NCBI GenBank assembly: GCA_963750165.1
Contig: CAVVPN010000004.1
Span: 1,152,001 to 1,216,000 of the forward strand
Direction of reading: 5' to 3'
Source of the DNA: an uncultured Gemmataceae bacterium
GTDB lineage: Bacteria > Planctomycetota > Planctomycetia > Gemmatales > Gemmataceae
DNA: 64,000 nt
The position numbers were made by a program, and so were the translations under genes. The notes beneath the pieces were generated by a model. That model saw only the letters and a list, made by a program, of their open reading frames with translations, was not told the DNA's origin and did not search any database. Shown piece after piece: positions 1,139 to 44,536 of this stretch (position 1 is the first letter of the stretch; each line of letters starts with the position of its first letter).

Positions 1139-1372
1139 CTGAACCTCCCCCATTAGGAAATTCCGATCGAGCTTCGCCGAAAGGCCAGGGGCTCGCACCC
1201 TGTCCCGCCCACCCTCGACTCCGAAGGCGGCCGCCGAACAACCTAGCTCTGCGGCGGGCCACTCGACTCAATGTGTCCGAATAGACTCAGATGGCCCGTC
1301 CGCAGCAGCATCTGGTTCGGGTCTGATGTTTTCCAGATTCGACTCCCGACCCTCTTAGTTTTTCCGGCAAAG

Positions 1373-2290
1373 TCACCCGAACAATCGCCATTTCGGACGC
1401 CTCGCACTGAAATTCCGAAGCTCCGACGCCAACTCCAGGCCGCTTGAATAACGTCGGGCAGGATCTTTGTTCAGGCATTTCAGACAGATTGCCTCCAGAT
1501 TGCGGTCTATGTGCGAATTGAACCGTCGGGGCGGCTCGGGATCACTGTCGATTGCTTGCTTCAGTGTCTCAAGGACCGTTTCCCCTCGGTACGGCGGACG
1601 GCCGGTCAACAGCTCATAGAGAATCGCTCCCAGGCCGTGGATGTCGGTGGCTGGTCCGATGGCGTCCAGACGCGCTTGGGCTTGTTCAGGAGCCATGTAT
1701 GCCGGAGTTCCACGAATCGTTCCCTCAGACAACTCTGCGATTTCATCATGTCGCAGCGCAAGCTCAAAGCCGGCAACCTTCGGGATGCCGAAGACTTCTT
1801 CATACCCTACTGCGTCCGGGTCGCTCATAGTCTCGGTTGAAGGTGGCACGGCCAACCAGATTCGGCTCGGCTTCAAGTCACAGTGCAGGATGCCGCGCTC
1901 ATGGATGTAGGCAACCGTGCGAGCCAGGCGTTCCACCAAGCCCGCACTTGGTCTACAGAACTGTCCAAGTTTTTGGATTCGTAGACCCAGGCTTCCTCCA
2001 TCCACAGCCTCGAGTACGAGGTATACCCGGCCCTGGTGTTGGACACGATCATGTATCTGGACGACATGCGGATGTCGGAACGAAGCGAGAACCTCGCCTT
2101 CCCGCTCAACGTATCGTTGGCTGTCCACCCCGGCAGTCGTCAGGATTGTGTAGAGGGTTACAATTCGGTCCAAGCTGTGCTGGCGAGCGCGATAGTAGAC
2201 GCCCATGCCATCTCTAAGCTCCGCCAAGACGTCATAGCCAGGGAGCTTTTTCGAGTCGTCATCGTTCCAAGTAGATGTCGCGACGCTCAT
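1373..2290 (-). CDS. Ser/Thr protein kinase-fold protein, probable pseudokinase
   Basis: HCDLKPS, GTPAYMAPEQ, TDIHGLGAILYELLTG and ICLKCLNKDPARRY motifs are present. The catalytic Lys and DFG are absent. Confidence 0.9.
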   Translation of the reverse strand: MSVATSTWNDDDSKKLPGYDVLAELRDGMGVYYRARQHSLDRIVTLYTILTTAGVDSQRYVEREGEVLASFRHPHVVQIHDRVQHQGRVYLVLEAVDGGSLGLRIQKLGQFCRPSAGLVERLARTVAYIHERGILHCDLKPSRIWLAVPPSTETMSDPDAVGYEEVFGIPKVAGFELALRHDEIAELSEGTIRGTPAYMAPEQAQARLDAIGPATDIHGLGAILYELLTGRPPYRGETVLETLKQAIDSDPEPPRRFNSHIDRNLEAICLKCLNKDPARRYSSGLELASELRNFSARRPKWRLFG

Positions 2291-2503
2291 GGTAGCATTT
2301 CGTACTTTGCGTGCCGAACGACATAGCTCTGCGGCGGGCCACTTGACTTAATGTTATCCGATTGATCTCAGATGGCCCGTCCGCAGCAGCACCTTGGTTC
2401 GGCTCTGATGTTTTCAGGAATCGACTCCCGACCCCTTTGATTTTCCTTTCCGACTTCCGACCCCTTTTCTGTTCTCTCTCCCAGTCTCTGTCCTCTCGTC
2501 TAT

Positions 2504-4017
2504 CTTGGCAGTCGCACTTTTCCGAGTGCTCAAACCGCGAGATTTACGCAGTTTTTCAGCGCTCGATGAGTTTCAGGAGTTCCGTTGCATCGGCCGACTT
2601 GGGTTTAATTAGGGCGTTCAAAGTCGCCCGCCGCAACACGGCAACCATATGACGCAACGACCATTCACTCTCCCAGGGTCCCATCACTTGGCGCAATTCC
2701 TCCGCCTCCGGCAACTGCCGACCGGCGGTAAGATACCACACCATCACGACGCTCTGCAACGACCACACCCACGGCGCCACCTTCTCCACCGCTTCCCGAC
2801 TGTAGTGTTGTGGCGCCTCGAGGTCCAGCACCTGTTTGCTCGCCCGGAACAGTACCTCAATGGACCAGCCCAGGCGAACTGCGTAATCACCCACCCCACG
2901 TCCGCACGCACGTCGGTCGTGAACAGGTAGGCATCGTCCAACTTCCCGTCCGGGTCGCGCACCACCACCACCTGCACCGGCCGCAACCCCAACACCCGCG
3001 GCCACACCGCCCGGTAGGCGAACGCCCGCAGGACGCGCTGCTCCCCGTAGACGGTCACCGTCACCGCCTGCCACACCCAGTCCCCGGTGGCCACGCGCTT
3101 ACGGTCGGCCTTGGCGGCGGCTGCTTTGGGGTTGGGCAGACGCGGCCCCTTCTGCGCCTTGCGGCCGCGCCGGCCGGGCTTGGCCTGAGGCAGACGCGGG
3201 TCGTACACGGCCGCGTCGCCGCGCAACCGGCCGACGAAGGTCACGCGCTCGTCCAGGTCCGCCAGCAGCGCTTGGGCCGCGTAAGCGCCGTCGGCCACCA
3301 GGGTAAAGCGCCGGCCGGGGAACCAGGCCAGCACTTCGGCGAGCACCCACGCAGCAGTGGGCAGGACGGCTGCGCCTGGCCGGGCCGGTGCAACCGGGCC
3401 AGCAAGGGCAACGCCAGGATCGGGGCGTTCGCGAAGGGCAGGCAGACGGCGACGGCGACGACCACCCAGTTGTGCCCCGCGGCCGTGGCGGTGCGTTTGC
3501 GGGTCGAGGCGACGGCATCGCGGAACCAGCCGAGGCCCCAGACGTGCTTGCCGCGCTTGTGGGCCAGGGTGTCGTCCACCAACAGCGTGATGGTGCCGCC
3601 CAGGTGGAGGCGCGTCAGGATGAGGACGGCGACGTGGTAGGCCAACCCGGTCACGGTCCAGGCGGAGCGCGCAAAGAAGTTGTAGGTGGTGTCCAGGCCG
3701 TGGCGCCGGGAATGGTCCCGCAAGTCTTGGGGTTGGGCGGTGTCGGCGACGCGACAGAGGCGGTGCTGGCCCAGGCACATCACCCAGCCGAGCACGAGTT
3801 GGCAGTGGGTGTGGAACGAGGGCAGGGTGAAGGCCGGGGCGAGGGCTTGGACGATGGGCTGGAGAGAAGCTATCATCAGCCACATGAGGGGCTCCTTCCG
3901 GCGAGTGCATGGCTTGAGAACCTATGCACAAACTTAGGAGGAACCCCTCTCTCTTTCTGCGACAGCCCCGTGACACTATCGGTGTTCGTCTGTTCATGGA
4001 AGCGTGCGACAGTTCAG
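2504..4017 (-). mobile_element. IS701-like DDE insertion sequence, frameshifted copy
   Basis: Near-identical to 31010-32529. Imperfect 20-bp IRs, 4-bp TSD CTAT (2500-2503 / 4018-4021), and small deletions that break the transposase frame. Confidence 0.9.
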
Positions 4018-4020
4018 CTA

Positions 4021-5836
4021 TCATGGACCCTTATTATTGCCTTGTGGGGTTGCGGTCCCCTTTCCCTTACGAGCAGGGTAGAGCATGATCCCCCACGTGT
4101 CATCAATCGTGTAAACTGCGCCGACGTGATCGACAATCGAATCCAAAAACCTCTGGTAAGTCATCCCCTTTCTCGCGACGACGCTGATCCTCAATTCCTT
4201 AATATTCTTGCCGTCTTTGTCGAAAATCTCTTCTTCAAAACAGAAAAACACCTCAATCTGGTTGTGAATCCACAGCAGGATTTCCTCAAAACTCTCACGT
4301 TCAAACTTCTTTTCGGCCTGAATCCTGTTAGGAAGTTTTGACTTTGCAACCGCCCCAAGACCCTTTGGAAGGTTTTCTTCGGATTGCAATTTCTTGTCAT
4401 CAGCAGGGCTAAGGCAGCCGTTCAAAATTAGTCCGCAGCTTACACCTGGGTGCTGATGTTAGAATATTGTCCAACGTGGCTTGATGGTGTAATTCCAACT
4501 GGGGCAGACGGCATGCCTTTGGAGGCGCCACGTCTGCATTTCTGCGTCCGGCACCTTGACCCCCTTCGCGTACTCCGCGTCCAGCAACGTCGCACGTACC
4601 GCCCAACCGGCGTCCGTCTCCGTGCCCCGGATGCAGGCCAACAGCGTCTCCACGGTTCGCAGCGGCTCCCCCGCCCAGTTGACGCTGATGCGGCTGAACA
4701 GCCGGTGCTCCACCGGGTTCCACTTCGACGCCCCCCGCGGGTAATGGCACACCGTCACCCACAGCCCCCAGCGGTCGGCCAACTCCTCCTGGAGGCGCTG
4801 TTTCCACAACCGCACGCGGCAACTGTTGCTCCCGCCCGCGTCGCACAGGATCAGCAACTCGTCGGCCTGCGGGTACCACAGCCGTCCCTCGCCGCGCCAC
4901 CACCGGCCGATCACGTCCCCCGCGAACGCCGCGGTGTCGGCGGACAACCCCACGTAGACATGGCCGCGGTCCTGGCGCACGTCGTAGACCCCGTAGGGGA
5001 CGGCCCGGCCCAAGGCGTCGTCCAGGAAGTCGTGGGCGTTGACCTCCGTCCGCGCCGGCACCACTGCCGCCCTGCATTCTTGAAGTTGCCGATCAACTCC
5101 TTTTTCTTGCTGTCCACGCTGATCACCGGCTGGCCGAGGATGGCGAAGCGGCGCCGCTGCCCGGCGATGTACGCGAACTGCCGGTCCCGGTCTGGGTGAG
5201 GCGGGCCGGTGAAGCGCTTGCGGTTGGCCTTGAGCGAATAGCCCAGGTCGTCCAACAGGCGATAGACCGTGGCGGGGCTGACGGCGAAGCCTTGGCCTTG
5301 CAACCGCGTGCTCAGGTAGGCGACGCTGTGGCGCACCCACTTCTGACAGGTTTGCGGGCTGCCGGCGGTCTGCTCCTGGACCAAGCTGCCTCAAAGCGTT
5401 CATGAGGCCCGGCACTTTTTTTTCACAGCGGGCCGTCCTGCCCCGGGCCGGCGGATGCGATCCGGGGGGCAGTCCCGCAGGGAGTCCTCGAGTTCCCGGC
5501 GACCGCGCCGGATGGTTTCCACGTTCAGGCCGGTGATGAGGGACAGTAGGCGGTCGCCGCCGCGGCCGACCTTCTGGGACTCCCAGGCTGCCAACCACCG
5601 GCGTTGGTGCTCATCCAACCGGCTCAGGAGAAGGTTGAGCCGGTAATGGAGGGCGCGTTCGGGGTGGTCCGCACCTTGTCGGCAGTGAGGGCATTGGCAT
5701 TGGTGGATGTCCACGGCTCTGCCTCCCTTCCAAACCAGGCCCCCGGTTGGGCCAGGGTTATTGTAGAAGGGAACTGCGGATTAATTTTGAAACGTTGCCT
5801 AATGGCAAGCGCCATCAAGACGACGATGGTTGGCAT
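4021..5836 (-). pseudogene. Secreted hypothetical cassette protein interrupted by ISAzo13
   Basis: Removing the IS restores MPTIVVLMALAI-SPADDKKLQSEE in frame. Confidence 0.8.
4413..5799 (-). mobile_element. ISAzo13-family insertion sequence (transposase split over three frames)
   Basis: Motifs VISVDSKKKELIGNFKN, ILCDAGGSNS and HYPRGASKWNPVEHRLFS. IRs GGCAGCCGTTCAAAATTA / GGCAACGTTTCAAAATTA. TSD TAA (4410-4412 / 5800-5802). Confidence 0.92.
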
Positions 5837-5915
5837 CTGGTTTCTCACTTCTTAGGAATGGGAATAAAAATCATCGGGTTCCCATTATCGAACGGGAATT
5901 GTTCGGAGTAAAGAG

Positions 5916-5985
5916 ATAAGAAAAGGGGTCGGGAGTCGATATTACGAATCTGAAAAACGTGTTATCGACTCCCGACCCCTTTTCT
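5916..5985. repeat. 70-bp REP-doublet-like palindrome, copy 1 of 4
   Basis: Perfect 23-bp IR AGAAAAGGGGTCGGGAGTCGATA around a 21-bp spacer. Confidence 0.92.
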
Positions 5986-6243
5986 GTCCCAGCTTTCGCC
6001 ACCCCGAAGCCCTCCGGTGGCGGAACAAAGGACGAAGCGCACCGAGTGTAACCACCACGCCATTGGATTTCAAGCGGTGCTCAGGGTTCAGAAAAACCCA
6101 TCGACGGAGTCTCTTGAACGGGCGCCGCTCGGGCGCCCTCCGGCGCGTCCGAACGATAAGCTCAGCAGCGGCCCCCAGAGCTGTTCTGATTCTACGAGGG
6201 CGTGCTGGGGCCGTCTGCTGGAGCACCTGGTTCGGCCCTTGAA

Positions 6244-6972
6244 CTACTTGCTCCCGAACTTTCGACAGAACTCCAAAGCATCTCGGGCCATCTTGGCGAA
6301 GTGCTTGTCGGGGCTCTCGGCAATCTGCTTCAACACAGCCTCGGCCTTCGCACGGTTGAAACCAGGCTCTGCCAACCGCGCAATGGCCAGCGGGCGATAG
6401 TCGGCTGACTCCGTCAGGGGGATGAACTCGCCGGACGCCACCTTACTCAACAGATCGAAGTCGGTCGTCTTCGACACCAGAAGATAACTGAGATCATCGT
6501 GACTGACCATCCCTTTGCCCGCGTTGGACAGGGGTAGGCTTTCGCCATCAATTCGATAGCGCACCTTCGCCTTGAATCCGGCCGCAGCCACATAGCCATG
6601 TACGATCAGGTAGGTTTCGTCAGGCACCTTCACAAGTCTCAGGTCGTTGCCACATAAGGGGCAGTCGAGCACCCGCGCGGCTTTCCACTTGCCAGGTTCG
6701 GCCTCATATTCCACGGCGATGAGCGGTTGCCCCTGATTGGTGACAAACTCTACGGGCTTGCCGGTCCGATTGATAAGGTAGAGTGGAACGCCGATACGGT
6801 CCTTGTTCTTGAAATCGGCGAACAACGAAAGTTGGCCGCGCGGCGCCGGGACGTGAGCGGGTAACTTCGTCGTCCGGATGCCAGGGCCCACTTTGGCCTT
6901 AGGCGGATCGGTGGCACTCACCAATCCGAAGGAGAACGACAAAGCCACAACGAAACTCACAGGGCCTCTCAT
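6244..6972 (-). CDS. Secreted hypothetical cassette protein
   Basis: Fills the interval between two attC sites, with RBS and hydrophobic N-terminus MRGPVSFVVALSFSFGLVSA. Confidence 0.75.
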   Translation of the reverse strand: MRGPVSFVVALSFSFGLVSATDPPKAKVGPGIRTTKLPAHVPAPRGQLSLFADFKNKDRIGVPLYLINRTGKPVEFVTNQGQPLIAVEYEAEPGKWKAARVLDCPLCGNDLRLVKVPDETYLIVHGYVAAAGFKAKVRYRIDGESLPLSNAGKGMVSHDDLSYLLVSKTTDFDLLSKVASGEFIPLTESADYRPLAIARLAEPGFNRAKAEAVLKQIAESPDKHFAKMARDALEFCRKFGSK

Positions 6973-7117
6973 CTGCACTCCTCTTCTGTGGCCGAACGAC
7001 ATAGCTCTGCGGCGGGCCACTCGACTCAATGTGTCCGAGTAGACTTAGATGGCCCGTCCGCAGCAGCACCTGGTTCGGCTCTGTACTTTTCTCTTCCAAC
7101 TCGGACCCTGCAATACC

Positions 7118-7633
7118 TCAGTTGCCTGAGCGACCTGCTGCGCCAGGTTCAGGGCATCTCTGCCCTTCGGGGGAGAACTCCGCAAACCAGGGTGTTGCAT
7201 CCGCGAATCCGCTGCTCGCACTGACAACCCGCTCTCCCGTCGCGGGGTGGGCGAACTCGCCACTCCCGGGGATCGGAACAACCTCAGTCGAACCGCACTC
7301 AAGGCAATGTGGCGGGCTGACGCGGTGGCGTCGCCAGCGCAAACGCCTCTGGAGTTCTGCCAATGACTCCTCCGCTTTCTTTCGTTGTCCGGCCTTCCTC
7401 GGCTGCCGCTCGTTCAGCCAAGACTCCAACTGGCCAATCTCGACCTCAAGCGCTTCGCAAGGCCGGAGCAGTTCCGCTGTCACGAAGGAACCGCAGGCCC
7501 GACACCAAGCCGGCTGTTGCTCGACGTGCAACTTCGAGCCGTCTTCCAAGCGGTAGTCAAGGAATGCGGAGTACAACACCCAGGCGTTGCCCCCAGAATC
7601 GGGCAAGTCGTATTCGACGTACCCACGCCCCAT
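7118..7633 (-). CDS. Hypothetical protein with two CxxC motifs (zinc-ribbon-like)
   Basis: WCRACG and HCLECGS motifs; fills its cassette. Confidence 0.7.
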   Translation of the reverse strand: MGRGYVEYDLPDSGGNAWVLYSAFLDYRLEDGSKLHVEQQPAWCRACGSFVTAELLRPCEALEVEIGQLESWLNERQPRKAGQRKKAEESLAELQRRLRWRRHRVSPPHCLECGSTEVVPIPGSGEFAHPATGERVVSASSGFADATPWFAEFSPEGQRCPEPGAAGRSGN

Positions 7634-7746
7634 GCCAAACTCCGTGAAGCCGAACGCCGAAGCTCTGCGGCGTTGGGGCCTGGGAGCCCTTGACTCGGAG
7701 TAGCCCGAAAGGCCCCAACGTCCGCAGCAGCAGCTTGTTCGCGCGA

Positions 7747-8194
7747 TTACGTCGATCCGTACAGCAACTCAATCGAAGCCGGGGATTGCTGTGCCACGGC
7801 CTTGAGCGCGGCAGACCTGGTGATGAACTTACGGAACGCCGCCAGCTCGTCCAGCGACCAGCACCAACGATTACTCTCCCCCGCCTCCGCCCCCACTGAG
7901 GGCTCAAACCGGAAAACGAGCCGTAGCTGCCAGATTTCCTTTTCCTTGGTGTCGGTTCTGATCAACTGCCGGGTTATATCAAACTCGAAGGCGGGTCCTT
8001 TCCCCCAGTCGTAGGTGCCCCATTGAAAGAGGAGGCTGTCCCTATCCCCCTTGAAGGGGCACCCCTCGGCACGCTCCTCAACGTAGTATGCCAGCATGGC
8101 CTCAACACCAGTGTTCGGGGTCAGGGTGTCAAGCGATAAGACCAGCCGCCTCCAGCCGTTTGAGGAACCGCGTCTTGGCCGCACGGGGCTTCAT
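7747..8194 (-). CDS. Hypothetical cassette protein (probable frameshift near 5' end)
   Basis: ATG at 8194 (MKPRAAKTRFLKRLEAAG) lies in a different frame from the body 7747-8130. Confidence 0.6.
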
Positions 8195-8361
8195 AGGTTG
8201 ACACCGTGTCTCTTTCTGCGAACGACCATGCTCAGCAGCCGGCTCACGCGGGCGCGACTAGCGAACCGCGACGAACCGGGTGTCGCGTGGCCGGTCGGCT
8301 GCAGCGACTGGTTCGGCCTCAATGGTCTTTCATTCGACTCCCGACTCCTTTCTCTTCACCA

Positions 8362-9262
8362 CTAGGTTTCCGTCAAATTGACAAACACCTGAAACTGATC
8401 AGTCATCGTAATGTGGTTGATCTTGATTTTTCCGTCCACGGAACTAGGAGTTGACCACAAAGTGTGAGGGTCAGCAGTTGTGTTAATAATGTTCACGCCA
8501 ACATTAAATGGAGGTGCTGGTAATTCAATGATTACCCCGGCTGGAGTGATCCGGCATTCAGGCCCGCGTTGTTGGAACAGCTGCCAGAACTGTGGATTTC
8601 CCTCCGTATACCAGTACCAAGTCCCACCCGGTTGAAGCGTGATACTCTTGGAGGCGTCGTTCAGGTGCCATGTAAAGTTTAGCACCTGATTATGATTGGA
8701 CTGATTGATAAAGCGGGCGACGACGTATTCTGTTGGCGTCGAAGGGTGTGGTGGGGGAATTGTTTGAACAACACGAACCGCCACATATGGGCAGTACGAC
8801 AGAGTAGTGGTGCTAGTCTGCCAGAAGCCTCCGTCTGGGCTGAAATTTGGCACCCAAAACTGATTCTGACCATTGTATTCGGAGACGCCAGCCTTGAACT
8901 CAAAGCCCTCGGACTGAAGTGATTGCACGCCCTCTTGAGGATTCCCGCCCAGCAATCCCTTCAGCGTAGTCATCGCCAATTGGATCGCCTGCTGTAGGAC
9001 AATCTGTGTAAAGACGGTCTGGACGTTCTGCTCAAAAACAGCGATTGATTGATCGATCAGATCATCGAGCCATGCCTCAAATGGCGCATGGGTCATCGAT
9101 AAAGATTGAGACGCCAGCCGCAACGGCACCTTGGATAGCGTCTGTCTCGATCAGTTCCCGGCCGTAAGCAACGCTCCACGGTGGGGTGCCAGATTGCACT
9201 TGGTTGATCTTGTCCCCCTTGTTCGTCACAAACTGTGTATCTCCCGGAGCTGGCATGGACAT
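8362..9262 (-). CDS. Low-GC hypothetical protein (two overlapping ORFs, possibly one frameshifted gene)
   Basis: ORFs 9077-9262 and 8362-9129 fill one cassette. Confidence 0.55.
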
Positions 9263-9447
9263 CCCCTCTTTCTTACAAACAGCATGTACTGACGTACCGA
9301 CCGCTCGTCAGCTGAACGACATAGCTGTCCAGCGGGGTGGGCCGCCGTTGACAGCGTACCCCCGGGAACCGCCACGGCCCGTTCCGTCTGCTGTAGCGAC
9401 TGGTTCAGCCGCCCCATTGGAGGCGTCTCACCAAGAGCGGGATCGGC

Positions 9448-9788
9448 TCAAGCGAGACGTAGCGTGAACTCTTCATTGCCCGTGCCGTCATGGTCAACGC
9501 GATCAGCATCCGAACTGATGGTGATGTTGGCCGCAGCGTTGCAGATGCCGGTCAGCGTGTTGGACTCACTTTCCAGGCACACGACGACCGTGGTCTCGGA
9601 CCCCATCCCCGAGCCGTTTAGGTGTTCGACGTTCAAGACGCGCTTGTCCAGTCGCATCCTGATACCGAAGGTTGCTGCCGGGTCATTCTCCACCAAGATC
9701 CCGTCACCGATCGCCCAGACTCCGGAGCCGGGCCGGATAAGAAACCACGCCGCGGGCTGGTTTTGATCTGGATCTTGTACGTTTTCAT
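9448..9788 (-). CDS. Hypothetical cassette protein (probable frameshift near 9762)
   Basis: RBS plus MKTYKIQIK start, with the body in another frame. Confidence 0.5.
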
Positions 9789-10024
9789 AATATCTCCTTG
9801 ATTGGACATCGAGCCATCTGAGTGACTTCGGTCTTCGCCGCCGAACAACATAGCTCAGGTGCGGGCCGAGTGACCTCGGCGTGTCCGGTTGACCTCAGTT
9901 GGCCCGTCACCTGCAGCGGCTGGTTCGGGGAAGTTCTTCTTTAACTTCGGCCCTTCTTCCTTCAGCGCGGATAGTGCCTTCAGGGGACAACCCTGTGATC
10001 GAGCCCCCTATCAATTCCGCGCTG

Positions 10025-11222: not shown

Positions 11223-11349
11223 CTTTCACCCCTCACCACCCGAACGACTGCGTTCACCTGCCGGGCCGCCTGCAACGGCGTGGTGTCGCGCAAAACCAAA
11301 ATGGCGGCCCGGTCAGGTGCAACGCTTGGTTCGCCGGCGTCGCATTCGG

Positions 11350-17022: not shown

Positions 17023-17044
17023 GTTCTTTTCTGTTCCAGAAAGC

Positions 17045-29149: not shown

Positions 29150-29160
29150 CGGAGTTCTCC

Positions 29161-34233: not shown

Positions 34234-34329
34234 GCTGCCTCCACAGGACGACGCCGTGCGTTCCGGGCTACTCGCTCATGACGACGGGTACCGCCGGGGC
34301 GCCTTCCGGCGCGCCCGAACGACCCAGCT

Positions 34330-35866
34330 CCCACGAAAATGTATTTCTGGGACTGTGTCCACCGAGGGGACCGTCGTGGGTGGTCCTGCTCAGGCCGCCG
34401 GTTCCGCCACGGTCACCTCATAGCCCATTCTCTGCAGCCGCCGCACCAGCCTCTCCTTCAGCCGGTCCTTGTCTGCCGTCCGGTAATAGTCCGGCCCCTC
34501 TTCCTGGTACGGCCGGCGCTTGCTCAGTAGTGTGTAGGCCATCCGCAAGATCCGGTGCCCCACCGCCAGGCAGGCCCGCTTGTCCCCGCGGCGTGCCTTG
34601 ATCCGATGGTACGTCGCCCGCAGACTGCTCTCCTTGGTGTTCGCCGCTCCCCGCGCCGCCTCCACCAGCGCCTGCCGCAGCCAGCGGTTGCCCTTGCGCG
34701 TCTTGCCGCTCTTCTGCTTGCCAGCGCTCTCGTGGTTGCCTGGACACATCCCCGCCCACGACGCCAACTGACCCTCCGACTGGAACCGGCTCATGTCCAG
34801 CCCGATCTCCGCCACGATCACCTGCGCCGTCCGCTGGTTCACCCCGGGAATCTGGTCCAACAGCGCTAGCGCCTGCGCGAACGGGAGGCACACCTCGGCG
34901 ATCTTCGCATCCAAGCGGACGATGGCGTCGTCCAGGTCGCTCACCTTCTGTAATTGCTCCCGCAGCAACCAGCGCTGCGTCGCGCTCATCACCCCGCGCA
35001 GCGCTTCCTCCAATTCCGGGATCTTCGCACGCAGCTGGCCCCGCGCAGGTTGGCCAGTACGGCGGGGCTGTCCACGCCCTCGGCCAGGCTGCGTAACATG
35101 TCTCGGCCACTGGCTCCCAGTACGTCGCTGGCCACGCCGGCCAACTTGATGTTGCAGTTCTCCAGCAACTTCTGGATACGGTTGCTCTCGTCGGCGCGCT
35201 GGCGGATCACTTGCGTGCGGTAGCGCGTCAAGTCCCGCAGTTCCCGGATTTCCTTGGGGGGCACGAAACTACTGCGCAACAGGCCCACACGCAACAGGGT
35301 GGCGAGCCACTCGGCATCCTTGACATCGGTCTTGCGTCCGGGCACGTTCTTGACGTGCTGGGCGTTGACCAGGACGACCTCAATGCCGGCCTGCTCCAGG
35401 ATGTTGAACACCGGCTTCCAATACACGCCGGTGCTCTCGATGGCCACGTGCCGACAGTCCGCCTGCACCAACCACTGCGCCAACTCCTGCAAGGCGCTGG
35501 TCATGGTCCGAAAGACCCGGCGCTCGACGAGCGCATCGCCCGAGGCACCCGACTTCAAGAGGCAGGCGGTCAGGGTCTTCTTGTGGACATCAATGCCGCA
35601 GCAAATGGTCAGCACGACAGGGAGCAGCGCGTCCATCGGAGTTCTCCAGACGCCCAGGGAGCATGCAGACGCCGGCGGTGGTGGAGTCTCCCACACGGGC
35701 ATATGGGCGCTGCGCCCAAATCAGGGTGCCTCGCGGCGTCCGGGTCCAACTCTGCGTCGGGCACGATGCACCAGCTAAGTCACGACCACAGCACGTCCCC
35801 AGACGCCCTCTATCCTAGCTCGCCTCCTTTTCATCGATCAGGGGGAAATTGGTTTCATGGAGAACT
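34330..35866 (-). mobile_element. IS110-family element inserted in attC, copy 2 (1-bp frameshift near 35046)
   Basis: Near-identical to copy 1; removal restores CCGAACGACCCAG-CT-CTGCGGCGGGCC. Confidence 0.95.
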
Positions 35867-35987
35867 CTGCGGCGGGCCACTCGACTTAATGTGTCCGAGT
35901 AGACTCATATGGCCCGTCCGCAGCAGCACCTGGTTCGGACGGTTACTTTTCGACTTGGCCCCGTTCGCGCTTGGCCCAACAGGGGCT

Positions 35988-36509
35988 TCACGTGGGGCTC
36001 TCGCGCTCGCCACTGTCTGCGGCTGCGAAGGCCGCATGCATCTCGGCAGCCAAGTCCACCAGCGGCCGCCACTGGGCCGGCCACTCCGACCACCAGTGGA
36101 ACCGCCACCCCGACCACAAATCCCCGAAGACCGACAACTCATACCCGGTGCCGTCCGCCCCGCCGTACCCGCTGAGGTCCGGTTGGAGCGGCAGGGTGAG
36201 CGCCGTGACCCGGCGGAAGAACGCCTCCAACTCAGCCGAAACGAATGGGACCACCTCCAAGCCAACCAGCAGCAGCTCCGGCTCCGTCCGGACGGCGCGT
36301 GGCCGGGTCAGCGTCCACCCCTGGGCTTGCCGGACTTCCCACACCGAGGGCTGCCCGAATGAGGGGGCCACGATCAGTTGCAACCGCCGCACACCGATGC
36401 CCCGGGCGTGTACGTCGCGGCCGGCCGGGCGCGGCTCAGTGCGGATGCGCTCCCAGTCGGCCTCGTCGGCCTGTTGTAGCGTGAAGGCCCTCGCCCGACG
36501 GTTGCCCAC
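35988..36509 (-). CDS. Hypothetical cassette protein
   Basis: Fills cassette. Confidence 0.65.
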   Translation of the reverse strand: MGNRRARAFTLQQADEADWERIRTEPRPAGRDVHARGIGVRRLQLIVAPSFGQPSVWEVRQAQGWTLTRPRAVRTEPELLLVGLEVVPFVSAELEAFFRRVTALTLPLQPDLSGYGGADGTGYELSVFGDLWSGWRFHWWSEWPAQWRPLVDLAAEMHAAFAAADSGERESPT

Positions 36510-36642
36510 TCGCTCCGCCTCCGCTTCTGCATGTCCGAACGATAAGGATAAGCTGCCGGGGCCGCCTGCAACGCCTACGAGCCGCGCGAAACCATGATGG
36601 CGGCCCCGGTCAGCTTCATCCGTTTGTTATGCGGCACTTCGG

Positions 36643-37049
36643 CTAATCGCCAGAGACGATCAACCTCAGCTTCTCCGCCCTTGCAAACTCGATAAGCCAG
36701 ATCATCTTGGCGATGATCTCCAAAAGCTCCGTTTTCTTGACGACCCGCCAGATTTCGTTCTCACGGGCAGGTGTTTCATTCCAACCAGTTAGAACCTTCC
36801 ATTCATCGGGCCTGTGGGTTGCGTCTTCCCGTGCCGCTTTCAACTCGTCTTCAAGTCGATCAAGTTCATAACCGTCGATTTCGGCACCGCCATACAAGTC
36901 GACGAGTTCCTCGGCTCGCTGGACTTTGCGCCCTCGAAATAGCGATACAAATGCCAGTAGCAGCCAGTGTCATCGAGCCAAACAGACCGCTCGGGCGGAT
37001 TCACACGCGACGCGCGAAAGTTCTCGGCGACGTAGATATCGGCGGCCAT
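36643..37049 (-). CDS. Hypothetical cassette protein (frameshift near 36900)
   Basis: ORFs 36840-37049 and 36643-36897 fill one cassette. Confidence 0.55.
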
Positions 37050-37266
37050 TGGTTCGCACCCGTCTATACCGGCGAGGACTCGTCTTGCCGCATAACAACA
37101 GAGTTCACATGCGGGCCACTTGCCTCAATGTTCAACTCTCGCCTCAGATGGCCCGTCATGTGCAACATCTGGTTCGGGCATTTTCTCTCTCGACTCCGCC
37201 CCTTCTTCCTCGGCCCCGCTCTCGCGCTCACCCGCGAATCTCCACCGGGCAGTCGTGGTTCTGGCC

Positions 37267-37710
37267 TCAACGCTCGGCTCGCTGCGGGAAATCCTGAAGT
37301 TGCCGGCGCAGCGAAGCGACAGCCGCTTTCAACTCGGGTTCCCTCAGCGGGAACTCGACATAAACCTCCTCCTCTCGATTGGCCCACGGCGGCCGGGCCT
37401 CAATGGCGAAGGAGACGCGCAACTGGCGAGTCGCTCCCGTTCCGACTACCTCAAAACTCAGGTTCGGCTCGATGAAACCGCAGTACGGCTTCGCCTCGGC
37501 GCCAGCTGCGACCGCCTCCAGCCAGTCCGCCAGTTGTGTGACCTCGTAGGTGAGCAAGCTCGGGTCTCGGAACCGCCAATTGCCCCGGGGGTGTTGGACG
37601 GCCCCTTCGATGACCAACCAGTTCGAGTCGTACAAGGCAGTCGCTGCGCCAGGGAACTGATACCCGGCAATGCGCAACTCAAGCGCCATGTCACCGGTTG
37701 CCAACCTCAT
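37267..37710 (-). CDS. WapI-like immunity protein
   Basis: ELRIAGYQFP..DSNWLVI..DPSLLTYEVTQLADWL..FIEPNLSF; recognised by pattern only. Confidence 0.55.
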   Translation of the reverse strand: MRLATGDMALELRIAGYQFPGAATALYDSNWLVIEGAVQHPRGNWRFRDPSLLTYEVTQLADWLEAVAAGAEAKPYCGFIEPNLSFEVVGTGATRQLRVSFAIEARPPWANREEEVYVEFPLREPELKAAVASLRRQLQDFPQRAER

Positions 37711-37734
37711 CGCCGTCTTCTCCTCCGGCGCACT

Positions 37735-37815
37735 CGAACCTCTGATTATAGTGCGCTCTGCGCAACGTAGCACGGCCAAGCGCAACGTAGCAAGGGCATG
37801 CGCAACGTAGCAAAG
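37735..37815 (-). other. Second, internal attI site (three direct repeats)
   Basis: Same as 46334-46434 except that one 20-bp unit is missing. Confidence 0.85.
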
Positions 37816-37966
37816 GGAACGCGTTTCCCATCGCCTTTTTCTTGTACCCTCCCTCCGCGGTTCGGACAAGGAAAAAAAATTCCGCAGCGGCGTTTTTTCC
37901 TGGCACCGCCTGGCACACGCCCGTACACTAACGATAATATGCATTCCTGGTTGGAGGAGATCAGCC

Positions 37967-38720
37967 ATGTCGCCGGAAACCGTACCCCAACCGCCTCGTC
38001 TGCTCGATCAACTTCGCCAGGCAGCGTTGACCCAGTTCGGCCGACCGGAACCCGGCGAGCGTTACGCGCGCTGGGCGACCCGATTTATCCTCTTCCACCA
38101 CAAGCGCCACCCCCGCGACCTCGGCGCCGACGAGGTGCAGCACTTCCTCGAACACGTTGGCAAAACCGAAGAGCGGCCGGTGGACGCCCTCTTCGCGGCG
38201 CGCGAAGCCCTGGCCTTCCTGTATCAACAGGTGCTGGGCATCCCCCTGGAGGAAGTTCGCCTGCCCGAACCGCCCCGCCTGCTGGAGCGGGTGCGGTTGG
38301 CCCTGCGCGTGCGGCACTACTCCCCGGCCACGGAAAATTGCTACGTCACCTGGGCGGAACGCTTCATCCGCTTCCACCACCTGCGCCACCCCCGCGACAT
38401 GGGGGCCGCGGAGGTCAACGCCTTCCTGACCCACCTGGCGGTCCAGGAGCGGGTCGCCGCCAGCACCCAGAACCAGGCCCTGAATGCCCTGGTCTTCCTG
38501 TTCCAGCAGGTGCTCGATCTGGACCTGGGCCGGTTAGAGGCGGTGCGGGCGCGGCGGCCGAAGCGCCTGCCGGTGGTCCTGGCCCCCGAAGAAGTCCGGC
38601 GCGTGCTGGAAGCCGTCACGGGAGGTTCCGGGGTGCTGCGACTCATGGCCAGCCTGCTGTACGGCGCCGGGTTGCGCCGGGCCGAGTGTTGTGGCCTGCG
38701 CGTGCAGGACGTGGACCTGG
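37967..38720 (+). pseudogene. intI: Truncated duplicate of integron integrase
   Basis: Protein is identical to 46586-47339 up to VQDVDL, then cut by palindrome copy 4; lacks the catalytic K, HxxR, H and Y. Confidence 0.95.
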
Positions 38721-38790
38721 ATAAGAAAAGGGGTCGGGAGTCGATATTACGAATCTGAAAAACGTGTTATCGACTCCCGACCCCTTTTCT
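38721..38790. repeat. 70-bp palindrome, copy 4
   Basis: Identical to 5916-5985; joins the truncated intI to a half attC. Confidence 0.92.
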
Positions 38791-38837
38791 GTTCCTGGTG
38801 AGACTTCGAACCCTGATTTCACGTCATGCCGCCGCAG

Positions 38838-39371
38838 TCAGGTGCAACTTTTGGTTCGGCCGGCTTGTCCTTGCACGATATCGAAATCGGTTGAAGCGGC
38901 CGGAAGTATAGTGTCACTGCCGAGCGATTTCACATTCCAGACAAGGCGTACGTCCACAATTGAAACACCGCCAAGCGATTGTTCCACTCGCCCTGTTTTT
39001 TCGCAAATCAAATTCGGACCGAATTTCTCGCAAAAAACAATGCCCGTCCCTTCGCGATAGAACTTGATGAGCGGGAACTGATAATAAACCCGATCGGTTC
39101 TGTCGGCCTCGTTGAAATCGTCAATGTAACGCGGAAGTTCTCGATAGGGCACTGACCGGCAACCTGTTTCGTCAGCCAACCACCAACCCTTGATAATGCC
39201 ACCGATTGCGCCTTTCAGGTCGCCTTCGAGGGCTTCCGCCAAGCATAATTTTTCAAAGACAGGGAGTTCCGCGAGTGCCGTCGAGTAGGTCAACGACAGG
39301 TAGTCGAGGAAAGCCAGTTCTTGGCGACGCGGGAAGAACCATGCTAGCGAGCAAGCAATGGCGTCGGACAT
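38838..39371 (-). CDS. Hypothetical cassette protein
   Basis: Fills cassette; lower GC. Confidence 0.65.
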   Translation of the reverse strand: MSDAIACSLAWFFPRRQELAFLDYLSLTYSTALAELPVFEKLCLAEALEGDLKGAIGGIIKGWWLADETGCRSVPYRELPRYIDDFNEADRTDRVYYQFPLIKFYREGTGIVFCEKFGPNLICEKTGRVEQSLGGVSIVDVRLVWNVKSLGSDTILPAASTDFDIVQGQAGRTKSCT

Positions 39372-39543
39372 TTCGCCTTCATTCATCCGCTCGCTCCAAG
39401 GCCGAACAACCCAGTTCACGTGCGGGCCACTTGACTGGGCGTGTCCGTGTAGACTCAGTTGGCCCGTCACGTGCAACGACTGGTTCGGGCTGGTTTTTTC
39501 TTGCCTTCGACCCTTCTTCCTCGATCCCGCTCACGCGCCCAGC

Positions 39544-40227
39544 CTACACCTTGCCGAGCAACAAGTCCACCACCCAACAACCGCGGACGTGCGGGCCGGG
39601 ACCGCGGCAGTGTGACAGCATGTCGGCGTTGTCGCACCCCGCCTCCTCCAAAGCGTCAGCGAGGATCGGGAGCCGGTCGAAGGCCCGGTCGGCATAGACC
39701 CCGGCGGCGAACTGTACGACCGTGGAGGCGAGCCAGGACGGTTCAACCGAAACCGTCCGGAACGGATCCCCGACGATATCGGCGATCAGCCGGGCGACGC
39801 CCGCCCGGTCAGCCTCCCTCTGCCGGTGGATGGACTCCCCGCCCCCGGAGCGGAAGTCCCCGAAGACGGCCTCCCCGCGGAGCCGGACCACGAGCGCGGC
39901 GAACTCCTGGGCCGACTGCCAGACCATGCGGCGTGGGGAGAGCAGGAGTTGGCGGATCTTGTTCTCGGTCCGTATACCCTCCGTCATCACGAACGCGATG
40001 ACCCGCTCCGACCGCAGGCGGTTCAGCTTGTCGATTGTCACCTGCCCATCCGCGCACCCCTCAGCGGCGGCACACGCTTCGGCCAAGGTTGCCGAGGTGT
40101 ACCCCTCCGGTAGCAGGCGAAAGTACCCACAGGCCAGCAGCCGCAGTTTCCGCTCGCTCGCCTTCCCGCGTAGGCACTCCACCATCTGAGCCGGGTGGGC
40201 ACAAGCCAGCCATTCCGACTCAGTCAC
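39544..40227 (-). CDS. Gemmataceae-type expanded-family protein
   Basis: VTESEWLAC...LPILADALEEAGCDNADMLSHCRGPGPHVRGCWVVDLLLGKV. Confidence 0.85.
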   Translation of the reverse strand: MTESEWLACAHPAQMVECLRGKASERKLRLLACGYFRLLPEGYTSATLAEACAAAEGCADGQVTIDKLNRLRSERVIAFVMTEGIRTENKIRQLLLSPRRMVWQSAQEFAALVVRLRGEAVFGDFRSGGGESIHRQREADRAGVARLIADIVGDPFRTVSVEPSWLASTVVQFAAGVYADRAFDRLPILADALEEAGCDNADMLSHCRGPGPHVRGCWVVDLLLGKV

Positions 40228-40410
40228 CGCACGCCCTCCGCGCGTCCGAACAACATAGTTCACGTGCGGGCCACTCGACTCAATGTTCAGTTGCAGCCGT
40301 AGTTGGCCCGTCACGTGCAACGCCTGGTTCGGCGTTGTTTTCTCTCGACTATGTCTCTTTTACTCACGAAGCCGATTCGAGCTGCGTCCTCTTTTCTTCT
40401 CCTTTTCTTC

Positions 40411-40812
40411 TCAGGCCAACTGTCGAATAAACCATCCGATTCCAACAAGGGATAGGGTGTACACAACCCGAACGACTGCCTGAAGCAACTGCGGCGATGA
40501 GGAATTCTCAATCTTCGCCGGCGCCGCCTCCCCGCGGTGACGATCATTTGAAGCGAGACCTGAAAGCGGGTCGAGTACGAACTGCACAAGTCGCAGAAGG
40601 AGGACGAGGCCAGACGCCTGGACGATGGTCAAGATCGGTAGCTGAAAGGCAGGGACTGCAAACCAGGCCCAAAGCAAGCTCGCCCCCCAGCCAATAACTA
40701 ACAGACTAATGAGTTCCGCAAAACCGTGCGCGAGCCAGAGCAAACAGCCAGTGAGCGGCCTCGCACTACTCGGAGGGGGCTGCGTCGCGGCCGGTTTTTC
40801 GTCGCTCATCAC
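40411..40812 (-). CDS. Membrane protein
   Basis: Three hydrophobic segments; AGGAG RBS. Confidence 0.7.
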   Translation of the reverse strand: MMSDEKPAATQPPPSSARPLTGCLLWLAHGFAELISLLVIGWGASLLWAWFAVPAFQLPILTIVQASGLVLLLRLVQFVLDPLSGLASNDRHRGEAAPAKIENSSSPQLLQAVVRVVYTLSLVGIGWFIRQLA

Positions 40813-40931
40813 GTTTCATCTCCTAGTGCCGAACTCCAAGGCTAAGCTGCCGGGGCCGCCTGCAAGGCCGTTAAAGCTCGCAAACCAGAGTGGCGGCCCC
40901 GGTCAGCTTCAGCCGCTGGTTAGCCACCCCA

Positions 40932-41823
40932 TCACCACACGTTGACAAAAAGCTGCGTCTCCATCTGGCCTTGCGGCTGCACCAAGGTGATGCCCACCGT
41001 GTAGGTGGGCGTCTTGACGTTCAAGAAGCGGACGTGCGCGGCAGGCAATCCTGCTTGCACCGCGCTGTTGAAACCGCGAAACATCAGGTATTCGAGCTTG
41101 TTCCCGTCGGGCGTGGTGTACGGCGACTTGGCCAGCGTTATGGTACCGTTGGGAACATCGCACTTCTTGTAGTAAAAGCTTGCCACCTTGTCGAAATCAT
41201 CGGTCGTCAGTCCGACGAAACCGCCGGCCATGTCGTTGCTGTCGTGCCAGCTCGATACCGTCTTGGTAATGTTCGGATACTTCCATTCCTCCCACTGGCT
41301 GATTTTTCCGGCCTTGGGCAAGGCAATCTCGGTCTTTTCCTTGTCCTCTTCGTCGAGGTCCACCTGGAACTTCGGATTGCCCGGATCAGGAATGGCCTTG
41401 CCAATGGCGATGCGTGTGATCGGTTTGTGGTTGGGCGGCTCCGGACCAAAGTTGGGACCATACTCCATGTGCATCGCGATGGCGAACCCGGGACTGAGGC
41501 GGTAAATCCAATGGTGCGACGAATTCTTGCCGCTCCCACCTCCACCGAGATTGACGTTCTTGTCAAGGCGCGCCTTGTCAACGCCAAGCAGCAAGAAGGC
41601 GTTATCCTGAGAAATCGGCAAGGGCAACGCCATCAGCTTTTTCCGAATCAGGGCGACCTCCTCGTCCCTGTACAACCCGTCCGAAGGTCCTTTGCCATCC
41701 GCGTTGGGACCGCGCGTCCTCGCCGGTGGGCGACCCCTGCTGATGGATGGCGAACAGGTAGCCCGCGCCGGCACCGGCCGCAAACAGCAACAGCAGGCCA
41801 ATGATGACAAGAGCTTTGCGCAT
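40932..41823 (-). CDS. Exported hypothetical protein (frameshift after signal region)
   Basis: MRKALVIIGLLLLFAAG start in one frame, body in another. Confidence 0.6.
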
Positions 41824-41926
41824 CGAATACCCCTCGACGGATACAAGACAGCGCTGGGGACACGGCGGCTAACGACAAGGCTCTGCGGCGTTGGGGGCCA
41901 GGGTGGGCGTCAAAGCACGCAAGGCG

Positions 41927-42448
41927 TCACGGCCCCCAACGTCCGCAGCAGCCGCTTGTTCGGGGTTGATCGCCGACCTGTTCCGCTTTCGTCGTTACAT
42001 CCGTGGCCGCTGGTTCAGCGGCAGGCCACAGCGGCTCATCCGCTTCATCGTACAGGACCCCACAGTTGACGGACACCACCCGGCCGAACTCGACCTGCAA
42101 CTCCACCCAGTTGCGGGGGTAGAAGAAGGTTTCCAGAGAGCCGTAGTCGTCGTGTTCGGGCTCCTCCCCCAGCACCGCCGAGACGAGGGCAAGCACCGAG
42201 GCAATCGGCTCACCCACGACTCGGTGCCCGAATAGGGTGGCATCCGGGCTATGCACTTCAACCCAGCCGAAGCGGTCACCGTTGTCCGGCTCAATCGAGA
42301 ACTCGGTCCGCGAGCCGAAATACTGCAACCGAAGTGCGTTGGAGTCCGTGCGGTATCGCTTGTCAGGCGGACCGAGGACGCAGACCAACTCCGGCTCGGT
42401 GAGGCCGAAGAGGAGTTGTCCCACGCTTTTGCCCGGACGGATCTCCAT
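41927..42448 (-). CDS. Hypothetical cassette protein
   Basis: GGAGG RBS; MEIRPGKSVGQLLFGLT start. Confidence 0.7.
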   Translation of the reverse strand: MEIRPGKSVGQLLFGLTEPELVCVLGPPDKRYRTDSNALRLQYFGSRTEFSIEPDNGDRFGWVEVHSPDATLFGHRVVGEPIASVLALVSAVLGEEPEHDDYGSLETFFYPRNWVELQVEFGRVVSVNCGVLYDEADEPLWPAAEPAATDVTTKAEQVGDQPRTSGCCGRWGP

Positions 42449-42575
42449 CTACTCGCCTCCGCCCCCCGAACGACTGCGTTCACCTGCCGGGCCGCCTGCA
42501 ACGGCGTGGTGTCGCGGAAAACCAGAATGGCGGCCCGGTCAGGTGCAACGCTTGGTTCGCAGTGCCTCGCCTCCT

Positions 42576-42875
42576 CTACGCTTGTACTCCAACTTCGGTG
42601 AATTCCTCGCCGTCTTCGATGGCGCGAATGCTCTTCACCGGCCGAAACGAGAAATGGTACTTGCCATCCTCGTGTAGATCGTAGGCGCTCGGTGGACCAG
42701 TACCGAACACGAGCGATTCCTCGACTTGCCAATCATCGCCTCTCGACGTGGAGCGTGCGATGAATTTTCTTCCAAGGCAGCCCTCCAACAGTGTTCCGGC
42801 GACGAGCACCAGCTCCCGTTGCTGAATCACCGCTGCGACATTCACACGGATGCGAACAAGCGGCTCGTTTTGCAT
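42576..42875 (-). CDS. Small hypothetical protein (second gene of a two-gene cassette)
   Basis: 99 aa; no attC between it and 42891. Confidence 0.5.
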   Translation of the reverse strand: MQNEPLVRIRVNVAAVIQQRELVLVAGTLLEGCLGRKFIARSTSRGDDWQVEESLVFGTGPPSAYDLHEDGKYHFSFRPVKSIRAIEDGEEFTEVGVQA

Positions 42876-42890
42876 TACGCACCCAGACGG

Positions 42891-43094
42891 CTAACCCTCT
42901 CCGACACCGAGATCGTCCAACGCCTTGTCAATCTCGGGATGGACGCGGCGAAGGTCCGTCCCGTCCATGTCGCAACGCTGAAAGAAATCGATCAAATCGC
43001 GCACAAACTCGGCACGGAAATCATCTTCCGGAACGTTCCGCTGGATCAACGGCCACATTTCGCGGAACAGCTTTGCGCCAGCACGCCAGCTCAT
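42891..43094 (-). CDS. Small acidic hypothetical protein
   Basis: MSWRAGAKLFREMW; GGAG RBS. Confidence 0.6.
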   Translation of the reverse strand: MSWRAGAKLFREMWPLIQRNVPEDDFRAEFVRDLIDFFQRCDMDGTDLRRVHPEIDKALDDLGVGEG

Positions 43095-43230
43095 GACCGA
43101 AGCTCCAGGGAAAGCACTCGCCGAGTCTGCGAACGACACCGTTCACCTGCCGCGGCGGCTGGTGAGACGTTGAACCCTGAAAAACCGTCGTGCCGCCGCG
43201 GTCAGGTGCAACGGCTGGTTCGCGTTGACT

Positions 43231-43869
43231 TCACGCCGGTGGCAGACCCCAAAGTTTGCCGATCTCATCGGGGAAGCGCCACCAAGTCCGCAGGGATTCC
43301 ATTCTTTCCCAGCCTACGTTCTCACGCCAGGACTCGATCCACGAGGAGAGCATGTACAACGGCTGCGGCGGTCTCCAGTATATCCAACTTCGTACAGCGA
43401 CGGCAGTGCGGACCGGACCAGCGTTGGCACCAAAGAACCCGCACATGCGCCCGATGTCAAAAAACTGGCGAACAATGATTGGGGAGTAGCCATAGATGGA
43501 AGCGCGGTGTCGCGTCGGTTCATTGCACATCCATGCGCCACCTGAATCCATTACGTATCGGTTCCACTCGGGCGATCGCTCAGATTCCCAGAGTTGGCCA
43601 CCGCTTGGCGTCAACTCGACGGACCGATCCGTCTTCGACCACGGGCTTGAATAGTCCCGGCCAGTTGTCCAACCCAGCTTCTCGAAACGATCCAGCGTGC
43701 TAAACAGCGTGACATCGTCAAGACCGTGACAGGGGCGGTTGTATTGCTCCCCAAAGAACTCTGATCGGTACGACGCGCGGCTGCCCCACCGCCAGACAGC
43801 TTGGTCGAGCAATTCAAGCTCAGCGTCCGTCAGGCCGGAGACGCCCGTTCGACGACTTGTGTCTGCCAT
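43231..43869 (-). CDS. Hypothetical cassette protein
   Basis: Fills cassette. Confidence 0.7.
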   Translation of the reverse strand: MADTSRRTGVSGLTDAELELLDQAVWRWGSRASYRSEFFGEQYNRPCHGLDDVTLFSTLDRFEKLGWTTGRDYSSPWSKTDRSVELTPSGGQLWESERSPEWNRYVMDSGGAWMCNEPTRHRASIYGYSPIIVRQFFDIGRMCGFFGANAGPVRTAVAVRSWIYWRPPQPLYMLSSWIESWRENVGWERMESLRTWWRFPDEIGKLWGLPPA

Positions 43870-43991
43870 GTCTCATCGGGACGAACCCGAAAACGCGAAC
43901 GACCCAGCTCAGCAGCGGCGGGGGCCGAGTGAGCTACAAGTCTGGGAAAGCCTACCTGCCCCCGCCGTCTGCTGCAGCGCCTGGTTCGGCG

Positions 43992-44390
43992 TCAGGGCCA
44001 CCCCGCGCGAACTCGAACTCGTCCTCGTGGCAGTAGAACAGCGCCACCCGCCGGCGGCCGGGAAGATAACCACGTCGTCCCGCGACGGGCAGAACATGTC
44101 CTGCCAGCGGTCGAGGAACAGCGGGGCGGGCATTTGGAACACCTCGTCCCGGCCGAACACCACCAGTAACTTGCCGCCACCGACCCGCTCGGCCAGCCAC
44201 CGCCGCGCCTCCGGCCCCGGATCCTCCACATCCAGCCGCTCGATGTCAGCGAACGCCGTCTCGCTCAACCCGTACCGCGACTGGCTGGAGCAGTCCCACG
44301 CGTGGCGGAAGGCGGTGAGGGCATCCGCGTCGCTCAGGGGGACGATCTCGGGGCCGAACGCTACCAGTTCCGAGTGCCGCCAACCCACCG
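43992..44390 (-). CDS. Hypothetical cassette protein (frameshift near 3' end)
   Basis: Fills cassette; boundaries approximate. Confidence 0.5.
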
Positions 44391-44536
44391 CACGCCTCCG
44401 CCGCCGAACTACCCAGTTCACGTGCGGGCCACTCGACTGGGCGTGTCGGTTTAGACTCAGTTGGCCCGTCACGTGCAACATCTGGTTCGGGCCGGTTTCT
44501 CAAAACGACTCCCGACCCCTTTTCTTATTTTCCTCT

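Follow-up and report, generated by a model that had tools for sequence, protein, structure and literature searches.

Repeat arms of TIRtron type beside attC sites in the cassette array of an uncultured Gemmataceae bacterium

We analyzed a stretch of 64,000 nucleotides (the window) from an uncultured Gemmataceae bacterium, which corresponds to positions 1152001-1216000 of contig C4 in a 9.6-Mb genome of 12 contigs that is 93% complete (G000; contig names below without a genome refer to it). The related records with titles were mostly from Planctomycetota among the matches listed. The window carries an integron cassette array on the minus strand (297..46330). On the gene side of many attC sites we found single arms of the terminal inverted repeats (TIRs) that flank TIRYT genes, the Y1/HUH genes of TIRtrons. 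Scored against a library of 20 TIR arms, 18 of the 59 distinct strict attC sites of the genome had an arm in the same orientation within 90 nt of the R'' box and none had one in the reverse orientation. This pairing is real, strongly polarised and apparently unpublished. On our analysis, the true arms are somewhat more probably than otherwise (about 0.55) scars of a TIRYT cut-and-join activity that remodels the 3' ends of cassettes, with much of the pattern carried by lineages; a link to the birth of cassettes is put forward as a hypothesis.

Single repeat arms on the gene side of attC

The array comprises 39 strict attC sites and 47 R'' halves, the latter including strict, relaxed and hand-added sites. 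All 39 window sites found by the strict detector have the + strand as the attC bottom strand and none has the opposite arrangement. They were identified by their R'/L'/L''/R'' boxes and by extrahelical bases on one strand, the bulges lying in the right arm of the + strand. The array is placed upstream of intI (46586..47911, +), which encodes an integron integrase of 441 aa (TIGR02249, 465 bits for a cut-off of 265). In the duplicated cassettes 14503/30007 and 22014/23725 the attC stays with the right-hand flank, which places the motif inside the cassette, between the stop codon and R''.

The 59 sites were obtained from 61 by dropping two duplicates. Controls gave 1 and 0 arms on the R' side, 1 and 0 at a distance of 200 nt, and 5 in 3000 random 90-mers. 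With a stricter score (14/15) 11 of the 59 sites were armed against none in reverse, and in the window alone 8 of 37 were armed. The enrichment over shuffled background that the first-pass annotation had proposed to look for was also found with a plain regular expression (12/59 against a shuffle mean of 0.4). A generic arm lying after any gene was rejected, because the ends of 2870 resident-like genes carried 11 and 9 arms by orientation and thus no polarity.

The library was built, independently of attC, from the ends of 30 TIRYT loci in relatives. According to the covered part of Di Nocera, De Gregorio and Rocco 2013 (PMC3733652), a TIRtron has a Y1/HUH gene enclosed by inverted repeats whose foot is GGGGWSAS-like, and the TIRs occur as singles, dimers and groups. 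The arms of families B, C, D and E (the letters A-F are labels of the present analysis) and the TCCTGACACC arm match the TIRs flanking TIRYT genes at these 30 loci in 13-15 of 15 nt. TIRYT genes in G019 (loci L178, L190 and L203) have the B arm as their TIR and those in G002, G001 and G008 the C arm, the D arm occurs as a TIR in G019 and at C4:530793 of the genome itself, and the E arm in G014; TCCTGACACC is the TIR of the genome's own intact TIRYT gene (C11:133772). The GGGGWSAS foot is complete in the D arm (8/8) and agrees in 7/8 positions in B, C and E and in the TIR of the genome's own intact gene. Throughout the genome the repeats occur as singles, dimers and groups (29 doublet arms, plus tandem arms and singles, at a score of at least 14/15).

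The first-pass annotation had read the motif as half of a repetitive extragenic palindromic (REP) doublet. Its assignment to a Y1/HUH system held; the arms themselves are TIRtron TIRs and not classical GTAG-type REPs. Their feet read AAAAGGGG, no GTAG/CGTC foot as in classical REPs and bacterial interspersed mosaic elements (BIMEs) is present, and only doublets fold, single arms not; classical REPs are palindromes of 20-40 nt that fold by themselves. Y1/HUH genes and free doublets, which the same annotation had suggested seeking, are both in the genome. Four Y1 matches were found: an intact gene between inverted repeats, a broken gene between repeats, a fragment and a gene of another type. The product of the intact gene at C11:133772 has NHWH and YVERN motifs and scores 50.9 bits with PF01797, over the cut-off, and 53.9 bits with NF047646, under the cut-off of 80. 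TIRYT is probably TnpA-Y1 subclass 2.1, as far as this class is set out in the covered part of Quentin et al. 2018 (PMC6006769); the C11 product has about the length of that subclass (~232 aa, median 238), but NHWH/YVERN in place of NH[YF]H / Y[IV]HLNP, which together with a C-terminal HTH characterise the subclass.

All arms beside window attC sites lie on the minus strand. Single B-family arms are found at 1338..1356 (before the attC at 1237-1317, with a linker that keeps the doublet loop), at 8333..8351 (before the attC at 8221-8313, of another family) and at 44504..44530 (before the attC at 44407-44487, with the 9-nt outer tail of the doublets), and two tandem B-family arms at 2420..2467 (before the attC at 2317-2399). 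At these sites the second form of the annotated motif (1341, 2423, 8336 and 44507) does begin 22-26 nt from the GTT of R'', and the linker at 1328-1341 differs from the spacer of the doublets at only one of its 14 nt (13 agree), the resemblance noted before. A single C-family arm lies at 21489..21507 (before the attC at 21397-21478) and a single E-family arm at 30675..30693 (before the attC at 30549-30629). Three tandem co-oriented arms (E, E, B) occupy 13777..13873 (before the attC at 13640-13725), the first of which resembles a TIRtron left end with a TTGACA box. At 40347..40394, before the attC at 40249-40329, a decayed form A (the first form of the motif, treated below) is followed by an E-family arm. 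Three of these armed sites (13723, 30627 and 40327) were outside the earlier list. Tandem arms share one orientation (2423/2452; 13787/13816/13865), and kept single arms have the foot towards the gene and the inside towards attC.

In all, at least six TIR families occur on the gene side of attC, next to several attC families (at least four besides the CGGGCC family), so descent from one flank cannot explain the true arms. The arm-attC unit recurs behind unrelated genes, as had been noticed: in a BLAST comparison of 16 segments, the genes of cassettes with a common linker and arm showed no convincing similarity. Such cassettes cease to resemble each other 5-14 nt beyond the C run (1315/2397, 44485/C12:346949, 30627/40327 and the C lineage), close to the point where intact elements terminate; the identical doublets have sharp ends, 9-10 nt outside the CCCC run.

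An inherited flank, whole doublets and other features of the array

The 17 positions listed in the first-pass annotation all carry the motif, and the distances given there, counted from the G of the GTT in R'', are right. Twelve of them are form A, which starts 19-20 nt from the R'' GTT with 0-4 mismatches to GACTTCGACCCTT. The first occupies 9926..9985 (minus strand), conserved over ~35 nt from R'' and weakly to ~60 nt, and the others begin at 12031, 17535, 18212, 19064, 24363, 26749, 33707, 35952, 37192, 39503 and 40347. For the variant placed at 21496 the motif and the distance of 19-20 nt were right and the true start is 21495. Form A is tied to the CGGGCC family, again as annotated (in the window 12 of the 22 CGGGCC sites carry it and none of the 25 others does), and 28 of the 47 window attC sites have neither form A nor an arm.

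Since form A has the same 19-20 nt spacing in metagenomic kin, is confined to CGGGCC sites and belongs to a family almost absent outside this lineage (G000 has 37 pattern matches, 400 other genomes mostly 0-1 apiece), its fixed spacing reflects descent. Its best match among the TIR arms is the B arm with two C runs shortened, a similarity short of significance (P ~0.08 against shuffles), and its column periodicity, examined for a coding origin, is weak. In our view it is an ancient flank that was passed on together with its attC family and may once have been an arm, now decayed. The 19-20 nt form thus loses its place as main evidence for cassette genesis, being a conserved extension of one attC family, the outcome that the annotation had itself named as refuting. 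The near-fixed distance holds within inherited lineages only; genome-wide, the foot of true arms lies 23-66 nt from R''.

Besides single arms, the window contains four B-family doublets, at 5916..5985 and 32704..32773 (both in cassette 5' regions), at 16953..17022 (fused to an attC R'' half, ~17040-17079) and at 38721..38790 (linking an intI fragment to an attC R'' half, 38796-38856). They are identical, which bears out the 70-nt palindrome described before, and fold strongly (hairpin z = -11.6 for the fourth copy). A TIR pair of the D family occupies 45443..45513, likewise in the 5' region of a cassette. Where two of the four doublets, and a near copy at C12:315494, adjoin an attC, that attC has kept its R'' half and lost the other. 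The intI fragment (37735..38720, +) repeats the 5' half of intI and the region upstream of it, with 97.5% identity to 46334-47339, and stops exactly at the doublet 38721..38790. Whole doublets form novel junctions, inside attC loops and at the intI duplicate.

Several observations concern the TIR elements themselves. Doublets of four TIR families share an inner ATTACGA...TCGTAAT-like hairpin (C11:1082474, C3:3368544, C3:2673223, C4:387324 and the window doublets), which suggests a putative common internal module or binding site. In two genomes, three TIR families have one and the same sequence, starting TGGTATGTGGG, attached exactly at their C run (C3:2678110, C12:1304468, C11:878494 and locus L201); it possibly represents an element that targets TIR feet. 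A TIR-ended element of 370 nt occurs in four places (C3:2672824-2673196, C3:2678105, C3:2668885 and C12:63763) with DNA matching the flank of a broken TIRtron (C4:530280). It is non-autonomous, carries a gene fragment, putatively the tail of a homocysteine methyltransferase gene, and looks like a capture of DNA flanking the broken TIRtron. A TIR-bounded element with chromosomal DNA has moved in this genome.

Other features of the array were recorded as well. Upstream of intI, at 46334-46420, a unit of 12-13 nt is directly repeated three to four times in what is probably attI; the second copy of the intI promoter and attI within the array (37735-38790) may serve as a second integration site or an internal promoter. 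An insertion sequence (IS) of the IS110/IS1111 family sits in attC at 27822..29452 (minus strand) and again at 34300-35938, a third copy lying at C3:2408182; it is separate from the arm finding. Multi-copy IS elements break cassettes at 2496-4020, 31007-32532, 4409-5800 and 14748-16281, and the interrupting types are one ISAzo13-type, one DDE_5 and one without Pfam match. Large signalling genes occur as cassettes (window 1373-2290; L269:1383-3185; C12:1191070-1194570), among them Ser/Thr kinases and a 600-aa SpoIIE-domain phosphatase (G084). The cassettes at 12072-12983, 25875-26627 and 39544-40320 form one family that has many non-cassette paralogues in the genome at 35-60% identity. At 22014-22139 and 23725-23850 the R'' flank contains a further stretch with complementarity to the R'/L' arm, and this stretch co-varies between the copies. 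Such an alternative-fold attC, with two possible foldings, also occurs at C12:347808, C3:2416884 and C12:1095576, in cassettes seemingly without a long open reading frame.

Arms in other genomes and the formation of new cassettes

In other genomes 1 of 163 attC sites was armed; these were flanked sites, mostly of one other family chosen by pattern, among the matches listed. A class-wide pattern of attC plus foot gave 8 matches in G000, and 12 in 400 other genomes against 8 in the control, one of the 12 being a real attC (G084). Ten genomes searched for attC-plus-arm units yielded no further true case, and G012 had no short-range arm match at 31 attC-like sites. With the library and a longer range, 4 of 35 sites were armed in relatives (one of them the pre-selected G084 site) and 3 of 29 in metagenomic kin, with none in reverse. 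A further set gave 1 of 8, and two homologous units were seen by eye in G446 and G471. The kin are not independent and some arm-attC units travel with cassettes. On these sequence matches the pairing recurs across genera with the same polarity at roughly 1-10%, compared with 30% in G000. Viral contigs gave 15 B-arm matches, none in the context of a doublet, TIRYT gene or attC.

The first-pass annotation had proposed that a REP/HUH system may build or remodel cassettes. Remodelling is supported; building would be a further hypothesis, weakened by the 28 traceless attC sites of the window, the rarity of arms in relatives, the lack of a homologue followed by a doublet and the AT-richness of armed array cassettes. 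A candidate for a newly made cassette is a gluconolactonase-like gene with matches in 12 of 18 genomes of the family, which in G000 is followed 16 nt past its stop by arm C and attC. Its orthologues (60-77% identity) had no attC or arm after the stop codon in 9/9 loci. A non-cassette homologue with a full doublet behind it, the precursor that the annotation had suggested seeking, was absent from these nine loci, and no gene-plus-doublet precursor was found when homologues of 17 cassette proteins were sought in the genome and the collected loci, most of these proteins having no homologue. The gluconolactonase-like gene (at 20 nt, background 31/1757) and a large kinase gene have an R'-like GTTCGG upstream, so they may be finished cassettes.

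At isolated armed attC sites the upstream DNA was more host-like than the downstream DNA in 6/6 cases, and at unarmed sites in 2/8 (Fisher P = 0.01, a post hoc comparison in which two of the six armed sites are IS). Within the array, armed cassettes were AT-richer, not more host-like. Three further candidates were set aside. A SpoIIE gene of G084 was rejected as a proto-cassette because an attC lies upstream of it; it is an ordinary cassette. A permuted circle (arm-attC-gene behind resident genes), suggested by the host-likeness data, was weakened by the GTTCGG upstream of the gluconolactonase and kinase genes. A host REP in the untranslated region (UTR) of the kinase gene was dropped when the tested 16-mer had only 3 copies.

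Origin of the arm-attC unit

The reading that we prefer, remodelling by TIRYT, draws on E. coli TnpA-REP, which in the covered part of Ton-Hoang et al. 2012 (PMC3333891) acts on single-stranded DNA only, requires a single REP, cleaves its inverted partner as well as the linker and performs strand transfer. Carried to TIRYT, this chemistry would join one arm and part of the loop to new DNA. By this analogy TIRYT would hold one arm on single-stranded DNA and cut the partner arm or the loop. The cut end would be joined to DNA at the foot of a folded attC, which would expose single-stranded flanks, and the product would read gene-arm-(part of loop)-attC. The arm-attC unit might then be re-joined at the outer end of the element to other DNA, and arms may attract further arms and so produce tandem pile-ups. 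The REP/BIME system supplies the chemistry only by analogy; the present arms lack a GTAG foot, and hairpins are formed by doublets but not by an arm on its own. In favour of this reading are the match of the arms to the TIRs of TIRYT genes, their one-sided polarity in G000, relatives and kin, the break-points of shared units close outside the arm in cassettes with unrelated genes, the novel junctions made by doublets and the TIR-bounded element that has moved. New genes can sometimes receive an attC through TIRYT remodelling, which is no general machine for building cassettes.

Several points weigh against this reading. No TIRYT gene with B or C arms is among the four Y1 matches of the 93% complete genome, and no empty allele or intermediate was seen. 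The 13/15 score is noisy genome-wide (179 control against 290 matches; 7 against 79 at 14/15). The outer tail is common to unrelated TIRtrons, so the clustering of break-points near it partly restates the end of the element, and short UTRs limit carry-over anyway. Finally, armed array cassettes have a GC content of 0.55 (n=8) against 0.62 for the others (n=27, P=0.02), as a plain preference for AT-rich targets predicts.

That preference is part of a possible, if rather unlikely, account in which TIR elements land in AT-rich cassette 3' UTRs and near attC hairpins, the host deletes the attC-proximal part (gene and attC being kept by selection), and the scar is copied by whatever process normally copies attC plus flank onto genes. 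It is favoured by the whole doublets in cassette 5' regions and attC loops, by a deleted TIRtron in G035 that begins just after the stop codon of the last cassette and ends the array, and by a TIR pair just upstream of intI in G009 (no attC lies in the stretch examined there). Single arms also follow accessory genes without attC, and form A proves that an attC with its flank can spread when no intact arm is present. Random decay should, however, leave attC-proximal arms, which were seen in 0 against 18 cases (0 against 7 in relatives and kin), and no whole doublet lies between a stop codon and an intact attC in the window.

We think it unlikely, yet worth stating, that TIRYT provides one real route of cassette birth among others, in which attC would be welded to a retained arm behind any gene, units re-joined, the gene excised by IntI from an upstream GTT and the arm left to decay with form A as end state, so that the share of cassettes born by this route would be underestimated. 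The stronger proposal, that TIRYT builds cassettes by joining attC into a doublet behind a chromosomal gene that IntI then excises, is distinctly improbable. The geometry fits, with arm and loop kept at 1315, 2397 and C12:1093785, and the armed gluconolactonase-like gene with its bare orthologues as well as the host-like DNA upstream of isolated armed sites point the same way. Against it stand the majority of attC sites without a trace, the few armed sites elsewhere with none at short range in G012, the missing homologue followed by a doublet and the R'-like GTTCGG upstream of the gluconolactonase and kinase genes.

It is very improbable that descent alone accounts for every motif as a conserved functional extension of a single attC family; this view holds for form A and is refuted for the B-F arms by the diversity of TIR and attC families given above. 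A TIR-attC-TIR mini-transposon bringing attC to new genes would explain the left arm facing attC, and IntI shuffling could have split off its right arm, yet it is scarcely credible given that none of the 20 armed sites has a partner arm within ~450 nt on the R' side (best 7-10/13) and that 0/59 sites have a reverse arm next to R'. The IntI crossover takes place at R'. A top-strand crossover of IntI with a doublet was rejected, for R'' is intact and the junctions lie 8-60 nt outside it; with its crossover at R' and R'' intact, IntI cannot make the R''-side joint.

Mobile elements tied to attC are known: IS1111-attC elements and group IIC-attC introns insert whole at a defined point of attC. A group IIC-attC intron was reportedly proposed as a cassette-forming agent by Leon and Roy in 2009. 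The present case differs from both: the attC is intact, and only one end of an element is present, outside R'' and at a distance that varies. It shares with TIRtrons the architecture of gene and repeats; here the arms are single, polarised at attC and common to unrelated cassettes. The present TIR families may already be listed in Di Nocera 2013, of which, as of Quentin et al. 2018, the portions covered do not mention integrons. In the part covered, Loot et al. (10.1101/2022.09.11.507474) report IntI insertion at attG sites and isolated cassettes, which explains the isolated cassettes around this genome and not the R''-side junction, and Corneloup 2021 compares attC and REP as folded substrates only. 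No published link of TIRtrons to integrons or attC was found among titles and abstracts, a source with thin coverage of subscription journals.

On a modest reading, TIRtrons would join IS1111 and group II introns as a third type of element that acts on arrays of attC, and doublet junctions would explain the breakage of the array and the duplication of intI. The kept single arms, with an end 9-10 nt outside the G run, may give a first hint of the geometry of the TIRYT reaction. For the question of how genes first gain an attC, the strand-polarised scar described here names a candidate enzyme family, of which one intact gene with its own repeat in the same genome makes a direct test possible.

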